Counted from the first letter of the stretch, positions 35,927-47,807 are shown. The stretch: DNA of 64,000 nucleotides from Escherichia coli (GCF_030384885.1 NZ_CP128613.1); one strand, 5' to 3'. The notes: generated by a model not told the origin, from the letters alone. Program-made: numbers and translations.

Positions 35927-36910
35927 GTGTTAAAAAAATATCTTCCCCTGCTGTTGCTCTGTACAGCACCCGCTTTCGCTAAACCCGTTCTGACTGTTTA
36001 TACCTACGATTCCTTCGCCGCCGACTGGGGGCCAGGTCCGGTGGTGAAAAAAGCCTTTGAAGCCGACTGTAATTGCGAACTGAAACTGGTGGCGCTGGAA
36101 GATGGCGTTTCGCTTCTCAACCGTCTACGGATGGAAGGCAAAAACAGCAAAGCCGATGTGGTGCTGGGGCTGGATAACAATCTGTTAGATGCCGCCAGCA
36201 AAACCGGGCTGTTTGCTAAAAGCGGTGTGGCAGCAGATGCGGTAAATGTACCCGGCGGCTGGAATAATGACACTTTCGTCCCGTTTGATTACGGTTATTT
36301 CGCCTTCGTCTATGACAAGAACAAACTGAAAAATCCGCCGCAAAGCCTGAAAGAGCTGGTTGAAAGCGATCAGAACTGGCGAGTGATTTATCAGGATCCA
36401 CGTACCAGTACGCCGGGCCTGGGCCTGTTGTTGTGGATGCAAAAAGTCTATGGCGATGACGCCCCACAAGCCTGGCAGAAACTGGCGAAGAAAACGGTCA
36501 CGGTCACCAAAGGCTGGAGCGAAGCCTACGGCCTGTTCTTAAAAGGCGAAAGCGATCTGGTACTGAGTTACACCACCTCTCCGGCTTATCACATTCTCGA
36601 AGAGAAGAAAGATAACTACGCCGCCGCGAACTTCAGCGAAGGTCACTATTTGCAAGTGGAAGTCGCCGCCCGCACCGCTGCCAGCAAACAGCCGGAGCTG
36701 GCGCAAAAATTCCTCCAGTTTATGGTTTCTCCGGCTTTTCAGAATGCGATCCCAACCGGCAACTGGATGTATCCGGTGGCAAACGTCACGCTGCCTGCCG
36801 GTTTTGAAAAATTGACCAAACCGGCAACCACGCTGGAGTTCACGCCAGCCGAGGTGGCGGCACAACGTCAGGCATGGATTAGCGAATGGCAACGCGCCGT
36901 CAGCCGTTAA
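35927..36910 (+). CDS. thiB: thiamine ABC transporter periplasmic binding protein
   Basis: GTG start chosen to give 327 aa; signal peptide LKKYLPLLLLCTAPAFA. Confidence 0.88.
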   Translation: MLKKYLPLLLLCTAPAFAKPVLTVYTYDSFAADWGPGPVVKKAFEADCNCELKLVALEDGVSLLNRLRMEGKNSKADVVLGLDNNLLDAASKTGLFAKSGVAADAVNVPGGWNNDTFVPFDYGYFAFVYDKNKLKNPPQSLKELVESDQNWRVIYQDPRTSTPGLGLLLWMQKVYGDDAPQAWQKLAKKTVTVTKGWSEAYGLFLKGESDLVLSYTTSPAYHILEEKKDNYAAANFSEGHYLQVEVAARTAASKQPELAQKFLQFMVSPAFQNAIPTGNWMYPVANVTLPAGFEKLTKPATTLEFTPAEVAAQRQAWISEWQRAVSR

Positions 36911-44685: not shown

Positions 44686-45381
44686 ATGTTAGAAGATCTC
44701 AAACGTCAGGTTTTAGAAGCCAACCTGGCGCTGCCAAAACACAACCTGGTCACGCTGACCTGGGGCAACGTCAGCGCCGTTGATCGCGAGCGCGGCGTCT
44801 TTGTAATCAAACCTTCCGGCGTCGATTACAGCATCATGACCGCTGACGATATGGTCGTGGTCAGCATCGAAACCGGTGAAGTGGTAGAAGGTACGAAAAA
44901 GCCCTCCTCCGACACGCCAACTCACCGGCTGCTCTATCAGGCATTCCCGTCCATTGGCGGCATTGTGCATACGCACTCGCGCCACGCCACCATCTGGGCG
45001 CAGGCGGGCCAGTCAATTCCGGCAACCGGCACCACCCACGCCGACTATTTCTACGGCACCATTCCCTGCACTCGCAAAATGACCGACGCAGAAATCAACG
45101 GCGAATATGAGTGGGAAACCGGTAACGTCATCGTTGAAACTTTCGAAAAACAGGGTATCGACGCAGCGCAAATGCCTGGCGTTCTGGTCCATTCTCACGG
45201 CCCGTTTGCATGGGGTAAAAACGCTGAAGACGCAGTGCATAACGCCATCGTGCTGGAAGAAGTCGCTTATATGGGGATTTTCTGCCGCCAGCTTGCTCCG
45301 CAACTGCCTGATATGCAGCAAACATTGCTGGATAAACACTATCTGCGTAAGCATGGTGCGAAGGCATATTACGGGCAGTAA
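44686..45381 (+). CDS. araD: L-ribulose-5-phosphate 4-epimerase
   Basis: 231-aa ORF. Confidence 0.95.
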
Positions 45382-45384
45382 TGA

Positions 45385-45400
45385 CTGTATAAAACCACAG
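45385..45400 (+). promoter_or_regulatory. LexA (SOS) box upstream of polB
   Basis: CTGTATAAAACCACAG matches the CTGT-N8-ACAG consensus, about 55 bp upstream of the polB GTG start. Confidence 0.75.
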
Positions 45401-45410
45401 CCAATCAAAC

Positions 45411-45442
45411 GAAACCAGGCTATAATCAAGCCTGGTTTTTTG
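45411..45442 (+). terminator. hairpin plus T-run after araD (possible terminator); loop carries a TATAAT hexamer
   Basis: aaaccaggc TATAAT caagcctggtttttt; could terminate araBAD and/or supply the polB -10. Confidence 0.45.
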
Positions 45443-45455
45443 ATGGAATTTCAGC

Positions 45456-47807
45456 GTGGCGCAGGCAGGTTTTATCTTAACCCGACACTGGCGGGACACC
45501 CCGCAAGGGACAGAGATCTCTTTCTGGTTAGCGACGGACAACGGGCCGTTGCAGGTTACGCTTGCACCGCAAGAGTCCGTGGCGTTTATTCCCGCCGATC
45601 AGGTTCCCCGCGCCCAGCATATTTTGCAGGGTGAACAAGGCTTTCGCCTGACGCCGCTGGCGTTAAAGGATTTTCATCGCCAGCCGGTGTATGGCCTTTA
45701 CTGTCGCGCCCATCGCCAGTTAATGAATTACGAAAAGCGCCTGCGTGAAGGTGGCGTTACCGTCTACGAGGCCGATGTGCGCCCGCCGGAACGCTATCTG
45801 ATGGAGCGGTTTATCACCTCTCCGGTGTGGGTCGAGGGTGATATGCGCAATGGCGCTATCGTTAATGCCCGTCTGAAACCGCATCCCGACTACCGCCCGC
45901 CGCTCAAGTGGGTTTCTATTGATATTGAAACTACCCGCCACGGTGAACTGTACTGCATCGGTCTGGAAGGCTGCGGGCAGCGCATCGTTTATATGCTGGG
46001 GCCGGAGAATGGCGATGCCTCCGCGCTTGATTTCGAACTGGAGTACGTCGCCAGTCGTCCGCAGCTGCTGGAAAAACTCAACGCCTGGTTTGCTAACCAC
46101 GATCCTGATGTGATCATCGGCTGGAACGTGGTGCAGTTCGATCTGCGAATGCTGCAAAAACATGCCGAGCGCTACCGTATTCCACTGCGTCTGGGGCGCG
46201 ATAACAGTGAGCTGGAGTGGCGCGAGCATGGCTTTAAAAACGGTGTGTTTTTTGCCCAGGCTAAAGGTCGGCTAATTATCGACGGTATCGAGGCGCTGAA
46301 ATCTGCATTCTGGAATTTCTCTTCGTTCTCGCTGGAAACCGTCGCTCAGGAGTTATTAGGCGAAGGAAAATCTATCGATAACCCGTGGGATCGGATGGAC
46401 GAAATTGACCGCCGTTTCGCCGAAGATAAACCTGCCCTGGCGACTTATAACCTGAAAGATTGCGAGCTGGTGACGCAGATCTTCCACAAAACTGAAATCA
46501 TGCCGTTTCTACTCGAACGGGCGACGGTGAACGGCCTCCCAGTAGATCGGCACGGGGGATCGGTGGCGGCGTTTGGTCATCTCTATTTTCCGCGAATGCA
46601 TCGCGCTGGTTATGTCGCGCCTAATCTCGGCGAAGTGCCGCCGCACGCCAGCCCTGGCGGCTACGTGATGGATTCACGGCCAGGGCTTTATGATTCGGTG
46701 CTGGTGCTGGACTACAAAAGCCTGTACCCGTCGATCATCCGCACCTATCTGATTGATCCCGTCGGGCTGGTGGAAGGCATGGCGCAGCCTGATCCAGAGC
46801 ACAGCACCGAAGGCTTTCTCGATGCCTGGTTCTCGCGGGAGAAACATTGCCTGCCGGAGATTGTGACTAACATCTGGCACGGGCGCGATGAAGCCAAACG
46901 CCAGGGCAATAAGCCACTGTCGCAGGCGCTGAAGATCATCATGAATGCCTTTTATGGCGTGCTCGGGACTACCGCCTGTCGCTTCTTCGATCCCCGCCTG
47001 GCGTCGTCAATCACCATGCGTGGTCATCAGATCATGCGGCAAACCAAAGCGTTGATTGAAGCGCAGGGCTATGACGTAATCTACGGCGATACTGACTCAA
47101 CGTTTGTCTGGCTGAAAGGCGCACATTCGGAAGAAGAAGCGGCGAAAATCGGTCGTGCACTGGTGCAGCACGTTAACGCCTGGTGGGCAGAAACGTTGCA
47201 ACAGCAACGGCTGACTAGCGCATTAGAACTGGAGTATGAAACCCATTTCTGCCGTTTTCTGATGCCAACCATTCGTGGAGCCGATACGGGCAGCAAAAAG
47301 CGCTATGCCGGGCTGATTCAGGAAGGCGATAAACAACGGATGGTGTTTAAAGGGCTGGAAACCGTACGCACCGACTGGACACCGCTGGCCCAGCAGTTTC
47401 AGCAGGAGCTATATCTACGTATCTTCCGCAACGAGCCATATCAGGAATACGTTCGCGAAACCATCGACAAACTGATGGCAGGCGAACTGGATGCACGGCT
47501 GGTTTACCGTAAACGCCTTCGCCGTCCACTGAGCGAATATCAGCGTAATGTGCCGCCTCATGTACGCGCCGCTCGCCTTGCCGATGAAGAAAACCAAAAG
47601 CGCGGTCGCCCCTTGCAATATCAGAACCGCGGCACCATTAAGTACGTCTGGACCACCAACGGCCCGGAGCCGCTGGACTACCAACGTTCACCACTGGATT
47701 ACGAACACTATCTGACCCGCCAGCTGCAACCGGTGGCGGAGGGAATACTCCCTTTTATTGAGGATAATTTTGCTACACTTATGACCGGGCAACTTGGGCT
47801 ATTTTGA
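45456..47807 (+). CDS. polB: DNA polymerase II (B family)
   Basis: 783-aa ORF with GTG start; polymerase motif YGDTDS. Confidence 0.95.

Follow-up and report, generated by a model that had tools for sequence, protein, structure and literature searches.

The 74 bp that separate araD, the final gene of the araBAD operon, from polB, the gene for DNA polymerase II, raise the question of how the end of one transcription unit and the beginning of another can be accommodated in the same short spacer, and whether transcripts of the first can run on into the second. The answer that we consider highly probable is that this is an E. coli-type araD-polB junction, in which a terminator and a LexA-controlled core promoter are placed on shared DNA and the terminator is probably leaky. 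The evidence for each of these elements, and for their overlap, is presented below.

Gene layout, hairpin and polB start

The window, i.e., the whole 64,000-nt stretch of DNA that was analysed, contains the Escherichia araBAD-polB-rapA region. By the ORF list and the RefSeq annotation, the genes around the junction are araC on the minus strand, followed on the plus strand by araB, araA, araD, polB and rapA. A 1-kb segment with the junction at its centre was 100% identical to E. coli strain 2013C-4282 and found a match in 5,400 of 5,426 complete E. coli genomes, where the annotation was araD and polB every time. An Rfam search of positions 45200-45700 returned no family match at E <= 1. The features of the junction are as follows, in order of position.

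44686-45381, plus strand: araD (L-ribulose-5-phosphate 4-epimerase), final gene of araBAD, with its stop codon TAA at 45379-45381; from the ORF list and from RefSeq, where it is so annotated both in K-12 and in the 100%-identical genome.
45385-45400, no strand assigned: predicted LexA (SOS) operator core CTGTATAAAACCACAG, within a 20-mer at 45383-45402; from sequence and conservation.
45398-45403, plus strand: candidate weak -35-like element CAGCCA, matching TTGACA at 3 of 6 positions, with a 17-bp spacer; read from the sequence.
45412-45438, plus strand: terminator-type hairpin with 5' arm AAACCAGGCT, loop ATAATCA and 3' arm AGCCTGGTTT; from RNA folds and conservation.
45421-45426, plus strand: polB -10 hexamer TATAAT (TATACT in K-12), with C at -13; from conservation in 80 of 80 sequences and from mapped starts.
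45433, plus strand: start of polB transcription as transferred from the homologous K-12 site, 65803(-), with a 5' UTR of 23 nt.
45436-45441, plus strand: T-run TTTTTT, the putative U-tract of the araBAD intrinsic terminator and also the start of the polB 5' UTR; from sequence and conservation.
45445-45447, plus strand: candidate Shine-Dalgarno-like GGA, 9-11 nt 5' of the GTG; suggested by a conserved purine-rich ATG(A/G)G(A/G) block in the alignment.
45456-47807, plus strand: polB (DNA polymerase II), with the GTG start codon at 45456-45458; from the ORF list and RefSeq annotation.

On inspection of the sequence, the elements named in the initial annotation (the LexA box, the hairpin and its T-run, the TATAAT and the GTG) were all present, and the coordinates that it had given were correct. 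The GTG start that it had assigned to polB is likewise sound, since it opens an ORF of 783 amino acids that is annotated as polB in RefSeq, both in the identical E. coli genome and in K-12, and GTG occupies this position in 80 of 80 sequences.

The hairpin begins 31 nt past the araD stop and is built on a G+C-rich core, CCAGGC (45415-45420) and GCCTGG (45430-45435), which A-T pairs lengthen to a dyad of 45412-45421 and 45429-45438. Six to seven strong pairs enclose a loop of 7 nt, with an A-tract upstream and a six-U tract downstream. When a 77-nt stretch was folded as RNA, its energy was -24 kcal/mol (z = -4.45), and none of 200 shuffled sequences folded as well; the 21-nt core with its 7-bp stem scored -10.8 kcal/mol and the A/U-extended stem -14.4 kcal/mol. 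The window of 64 kb contains a single copy of the dyad, where 0.10 would be expected. The hairpin is, therefore, well beyond chance, and the earlier claim of a stem-loop followed by a T-run is borne out by the dyad, the six T's and a fold far better than the shuffles. It is to be noted that a generic scan reported the hairpin on the minus strand only, missing it on the plus strand because the maximal stem absorbs three of the T's. A G+C-rich stem, a U-tract and a location close past a co-directional stop codon are what the sequence of an intrinsic terminator should offer, and all of them are found here, such that transcription of araBAD is predicted to terminate at this site. An araBAD terminator has reportedly been described. 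As for mapped RNA 3' ends, the Term-seq tables of Adams et al. 2021, obtained from cells grown without arabinose, contain no 3' end for araD and a single, internal one for polB, and the SMRT-Cappable-seq supplements mention neither gene.

The initial annotation had also placed a TATAAT hexamer in the loop of the hairpin, and this is indeed its location, with the sole qualification that the first T of the hexamer is paired in the 10-bp fold, the remainder being unpaired. That the hexamer serves polB is supported by published 5'-end maps, which the annotation had named as the appropriate check, and by its invariance in 80 sequences. In the genome-wide maps of Kim et al. 2012 (PMC3415461, supplementary file 2), obtained by RACE sequencing with enrichment for 5'-triphosphate ends from glucose-grown cells in mid-exponential phase, the polB start of K-12 is at 65803(-), with a 23-nt 5' UTR and the upstream sequence GACTGTATAAAACCACAGCCAATCAAACGAAACCAGGCTATACTCAAGCCT. 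K-12 coordinates were converted as 111236 minus the window position, anchored on the polB start codon (65780 in K-12, 45456 in the window) and in agreement with the alignment; the E. coli start then falls 7 nt past the hexamer, which places it within the 3' arm. The same study (PMC3415461) mapped the polB start of K. pneumoniae MGH78578 to a point 8 nt past TATAAT, with a 24-nt UTR and the upstream sequence ...AAACCAGGCTATAATCAGGCCTG. The reads at these starts were few, namely 2 in E. coli, where the method requires presence in both replicates, and 4 in K. pneumoniae, whereas the dataset means are near 108 and 79, respectively (PMC3415461), as is expected of a LexA-repressed gene in unstressed cells. 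Nonetheless, the two species give concordant starts, which also fit the invariant hexamer.

The remainder of the promoter is weaker. Of what is customarily looked for in a promoter of the sigma-70 family, a -10 element with a start 6-8 nt downstream is present, whereas a recognisable -35 element at 16-18 bp is absent; the CAGCCA is unconserved in the alignment beyond the CAG that it shares with the LexA box. It is because of this weak -35 that a generic scan, at its thresholds, called no sigma-70 promoter at the junction. Promoters of the sigma-S type and those with -14G tolerate a poor -35.

Possible read-through from araBAD into polB

In the reading that we favour, araBAD transcripts made upon induction by arabinose would form the hairpin of 45412-45438 followed by UUUUUU, and most of them would end there. 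The same 27 bases would act as the core promoter of polB, with the -10 carried in the loop. RNA polymerase would begin at about 45433, within the 3' arm, such that the polB mRNA should contain the 3' arm and the U-run but lack the 5' arm, and could not form the hairpin that would otherwise terminate it. LexA bound to 45385-45400 would cover the -35 region and presumably hold the promoter low by occlusion until damage triggers the cleavage of LexA. Lastly, since a 7-nt loop holding most of the 6-bp -10 is combined with a short stem, the terminator is probably of moderate efficiency, and some of the arabinose-induced transcription may pass into polB.

Read-through from araBAD into polB is thus plausible, because a loop of 7 nt and a stem of -10.8 kcal/mol make for only a moderate terminator, and the initial annotation, which had called such read-through structurally possible, was reasonable in that respect. 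There may also be a built-in limit to what the terminator can become, as shrinkage of the loop would destroy the -10 within it. The alternative that survives best, although we regard it as unlikely, is that the terminator is efficient and insulates polB fully, the overlap being mere compaction of the spacer and arabinose being without effect on polB. The hairpin is indeed stable (-10.8 to -14.4 kcal/mol), its six-U tract is perfect, an A-tract lies upstream, and the structure is strongly conserved where araD abuts, all of which would suit an insulating terminator; the 7-nt loop and the count of only six to seven strong pairs would not, as these are not the hallmarks of a strong terminator. Unexpected read-through at the terminators past araD and araE, raising the expression of polB and ygeA, has also reportedly been observed, which, if correct, would mean that an experiment has already borne out the read-through hypothesis. 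For the second of these junctions, a secondary statement cites Stringer et al. 2014 for co-transcription of about 50% of ygeA with araE. Both of these points weigh against full insulation. A literature search for polB together with araD or arabinose read-through returned only mentions in strain construction or unrelated papers.

The araE-ygeA junction is akin to the present one in being the end of an AraC-activated unit, where an intrinsic terminator leaks partly into an unrelated next gene. The two differ in that the gene downstream of araD has its own LexA-repressed promoter, embedded in the terminator itself.

Conservation among enterobacterial species

The regions upstream of polB were collected from 80 enterobacterial species, of which 79 were aligned with the window to give 80 rows that extend from the LexA box to the start codon; locus L005, which ends at a contig edge, was left out of the alignment. 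The CTG and CAG half-sites, TATA(A/C)T and GTG were invariant in all 80 rows. The spacing between box and hexamer was also nearly fixed, being 20 nt in 77 rows, 21 nt in two and 10 nt in one, and the distance from hexamer to GTG was 29-33 nt in nearly all scored loci. Relative to K-12, the spacer in the window was 97.3% identical, against 93.5% and 96.0% for the flanking coding DNA of araD and polB, respectively.

The fate of the hairpin was then compared with the gene found upstream of it, for which there were three contexts.

araD adjacent (74-352 nt away, sometimes with REP-like repeats in between): 55 species; in 51 of them all six core pairs are retained and 5 or more of the 8 bases that follow are T.
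Insertion of a DUF4751 gene on the opposite strand (Salmonella and several Citrobacter): 8 species; all-Watson-Crick core in none of the 8.
Insertion of a co-directional gene (for a DUF218, HSDR_N or small membrane protein): 12 species; strong hairpin by RNA fold in about 6 of the 12.

In Salmonella and C. sedlakii, where the DUF4751 gene is inserted, the 3' arm was entirely lost. Pseudocitrobacter presented a different solution, in which the old hairpin has decayed and a new one of 13 pairs, with a T-run, is located directly past the araD stop. A Fisher test of hairpin against context gave P of about 1e-7, a figure that is uncorrected for phylogeny and, the species being related, is not a proper probability. 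There were exceptions in both directions: in two Pluralibacter loci (L065 and L079) araD is adjacent and the hairpin degraded, and two Citrobacter loci (L012 and L017) have kept stems with G-U pairs although their neighbouring gene is not co-directional. The hexamer and the 5' arm, on the other hand, were always kept, the latter as AACCAGG(C/T) even where the 3' arm was lost (Salmonella L009 and L010, Pseudocitrobacter and Phytobacter). A terminator by itself is not a sufficient explanation for this lone conservation of the 5' arm AACCAGG. Since the hexamer and 5' arm are always retained, and the 3' arm and T-run mainly under co-directional transcription from upstream, the two constraints appear separable, which points to promoter and terminator as two overlapping elements. 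The initial annotation had described the terminator and the SOS-regulated promoter as interleaved, and this description holds, in that the mapped starts lie in the 3' arm, the hexamer is invariant with or without the hairpin, and the 3' arm and T-run track the adjacency of araD.

Analysis of covariation in the arms was less informative. In the register of the hairpin, 83.8% of the cells were paired, as opposed to 20-64% when the register was shifted, but the pairing did not surpass that of the shuffle controls, and compensatory changes were confined to one or two lineages. The high conservation of the element, which hardly varies, accounts for this weak signal. Full compensation was seen only in Buttiauxella (L078), one of the genera with a co-directional insertion, which retains a strong hairpin with the arms GTGGTC and GACCAC.

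These data also bear on a second alternative, namely that the dyad of CCAGGC and GCCTGG acts chiefly as DNA within the polB promoter, e.g., as a cruciform or as the site of a dimeric regulator, rather than as a terminator in RNA. The near constancy of its 5' half beside the -10, in species that lack the 3' half, does suggest some role on the promoter side, and the weak covariation statistics would also be in keeping with a DNA-level element. As an account of the whole dyad, however, we hold this to be very improbable: a T-run follows every intact stem, the 3' half decays where no co-directional gene lies directly upstream, Pseudocitrobacter has a replacement terminator after araD, and Buttiauxella has preserved the pairing and not the sequence, which argues for structure and against recognition by a protein.

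The LexA operator and the variable base of the -10

The core of the predicted operator is a 16-bp CTGT-N8-ACAG dyad, the centre of which, ATAAAACC, has A or T at 6 of 8 positions. It extends from -48 to -33 relative to the mapped polB start and overlaps the -35 region, its right end (CAG) being common to the -35 position. On its own, this pattern is not significant, as it matches twice in the 64-kb window against 0.65 expected, and two or more matches were obtained in 15 of 100 shuffles. The box and the TATAAT, each of which is at chance level as an isolated pattern, are taken as real because they are conserved at a fixed spacing, with both halves of CTG-N10-CAG invariant in the 80 enterobacterial sequences. 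The full LexA consensus of 20 bp is TACTGTATATATATACAGTA, to which the polB operator, counted by eye, conforms at 13 of 20 positions. Thus, the name of 'consensus LexA box' in the initial annotation is apt for the 16-bp core and not for the 20-bp consensus. A dyad core, overlap with the core promoter and conservation among orthologues are all found, as would befit a LexA operator, and on this basis both the binding of LexA and induction by DNA damage are predicted. LexA control of polB, also known as dinA, has reportedly been established. In a review, polB is indeed listed as a member of the LexA regulon (PMC6590174).

The TATAAA within the LexA box (45388-45393), which matches the consensus at 5 of 6 positions and would be directly occluded by LexA, was considered as the true polB -10, with the hairpin as an attenuator in a long leader, and was rejected as having hardly any likelihood, since the starts mapped in two species lie past the loop hexamer and not near 45400, the box reads CTGTACAAAA in many species, which weakens TATAAA while the loop hexamer is invariant, the end of araD offers no usable -35, and the transcript would run directly into its own terminator. 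The hexamer in the loop is accordingly retained as the polB -10.

Among the closest parallels to this arrangement are the LexA-repressed promoters of dinB and umuDC, where, as in polB, a DNA polymerase gene that is inducible by damage has a CTGT-N8-ACAG operator overlapping its core promoter; the three genes are found in listings of the SOS regulon (PMC6590174 for polB). The polB operator differs from the other two in its poorer match to the 20-bp consensus (13/20), in covering only the -35 side, and in belonging to a promoter that is nested in the terminator of the upstream operon. The umuDC box, in comparison, is described as among the strongest (heterology index, 2.77).

The K-12 junction has the same genes and a spacer of equal length (74 bp), with LexA box, hairpin, T-run and GTG, and 72 of the 74 spacer bases are identical. 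One of the two differences is at 45448, in the polB 5' UTR, where this strain has A and K-12 has T. The other falls within the hexamer, at 45425, where A in this strain (TATAAT) corresponds to C in K-12 (TATACT). Together with the C at -13 that both strains possess, the -10 context is CTATAAT here and CTATACT in K-12. The former is the sigma-70 consensus, whereas CTATACT with C at -13 fits a -10 of the sigma-S type. According to a review, polB needs RpoS for full expression in E. coli (Dapa et al. 2017, as cited in PMC6590174), and such dependence fits the CTATACT-type -10 of K-12.

Overall, the description of the junction is correct, and it concerns a locus that is already well characterised in E. 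coli and yields no new biology. The three inputs to polB, i.e., LexA, probably RpoS, and leakage from the arabinose operon, have reportedly been described for K-12. The junction is, all the same, a compact and clear case of a promoter built into the terminator of the preceding operon, and since Pol II is among the three E. coli polymerases that are induced by damage, the control of its level bears on repair and mutation rates. What may be unrecorded, and is incremental, is that the promoter half is invariant, whereas the terminator half persists mainly where araD, or some other gene in the same direction, lies directly upstream. One could go further and regard the nesting as a selected coupling device, in which the leak would connect Pol II supply with sugar catabolism and a switch between A and C in the hexamer would tune the shares of sigma-70 and sigma-S in basal polB expression. 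We view this as rather improbable; if true, it would imply heritable differences among strains in the level of Pol II and in stress-linked mutagenesis.

The frequencies of the two hexamers in E. coli, which are perhaps a second unrecorded and likewise incremental observation, were obtained with a 41-mer carrying either form. Of the 5,426 complete E. coli genomes, 2,396 contained the 41-mer with TATAAT and 2,928 the one with TATACT, a split of about 45:55, and the two sets of genomes should not overlap, as the central mismatch prevents seeding. TATACT was also found in E. whittamii, Citrobacter, Raoultella, Pluralibacter, Siccibacter and an Enterobacter sp., and this scattered occurrence suggests that the base has switched repeatedly between A and C.

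Insertions upstream of the polB promoter block

In the polB upstream loci of other enterobacterial species (designated by L-numbers), the insertions that separate araD from polB were all found after the araD stop codon and upstream of the LexA box (loci L007-L081). The inserted elements were as follows.

DUF4751 gene; opposite strand; Salmonella and Citrobacter
DUF218 gene; between the araD stop codon and the LexA box
Gene whose product has an HSDR_N (type I restriction) domain; between the araD stop codon and the LexA box
Small membrane protein gene; between the araD stop codon and the LexA box
REP-like palindromes; Klebsiella and Enterobacter

The few bases 3' of the araD stop codon serve as a recurrent insertion point, and the polB promoter block travels as one unit. 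The spacing inside the block differs in locus L080 (Siccibacter turicensis, about 1429-1460), where the LexA box and the -10 hexamer are 10 nt apart versus the usual 20, which moves the operator by one helical turn and places it wholly over the -35 position. Besides the polB box, a single further match to CTGT-N8-ACAG occurs in the window, namely CTGTTGCTCTGTACAG at 35951-35966, which is probably a chance match because its centre is G+C-rich.

The -10 hexamer and the adjoining hairpin arm

The -10 hexamer differs between the window and K-12 at its fifth base (window 45425), which is A in the former (TATAAT) versus C in the latter (TATACT). By 41-mer match to complete E. coli genomes, the two alleles were found in 2,396 and 2,928 genomes, respectively. 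Among the enterobacterial polB upstream loci, TATACT is also present in scattered other genera, and this distribution suggests that the -10 has switched repeatedly between sigma-70-consensus and sigma-S-type forms.

The 5' arm of the terminator-type hairpin, AACCAGG(C/T) at window 45413-45420, adjoins the -10 on its upstream side, and is near-constant even in species without the 3' arm (L009, L010, L024, L035, L038, L039, L045, L048 and L051); in most of these species the C at -13 is replaced by T. Such constancy despite the loss of the pairing arm makes a promoter-side constraint on the 5' arm seem likely, possibly residing in the G at -14/-15. It was also seen in the sequence that both arms carry CCWGG, the Dcm methylation motif (CCAGG at 45415-45419 and CCTGG at 45431-45435), which gives the polB core promoter two Dcm sites, one on either side of the -10.

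Other start sites near polB

Two further weak start sites lie near polB.

Window 45467, minus strand (K-12 65769, plus strand); antisense start in the Cappable-seq table
Window about 45290, plus strand (K-12 65946, minus strand); second polB-assigned start (Kim et al. 2012, PMC3415461)

The antisense start falls within polB codon 4, on the strand opposite polB, and is preceded at 7 nt by TAAGAT, which is the same in the window and K-12. A transcript from it would run across the start codon of polB and its ribosome-binding region before reaching the hairpin, which was also terminator-like on the minus strand in a generic promoter/terminator scan; the 60-nt stretch on that strand folds at -20.5 kcal/mol. 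A short antisense RNA across the polB start is possible. The second polB-assigned start, 166 nt upstream and within araD, had 2 reads (Kim et al. 2012, PMC3415461), and transcripts from it would need to cross the LexA box and the hairpin.

Lineage of the segment

The surrounding 1 kb (window 44936-45936) represents either an Escherichia lineage that has diverged or a stretch that has recombined. Its identity is only 95.0% to K-12 and 90-95% to 4,302 of the complete E. coli genomes; among all the complete E. coli genomes, 100% identity over 44936-45936 was found in strain 2013C-4282 only.
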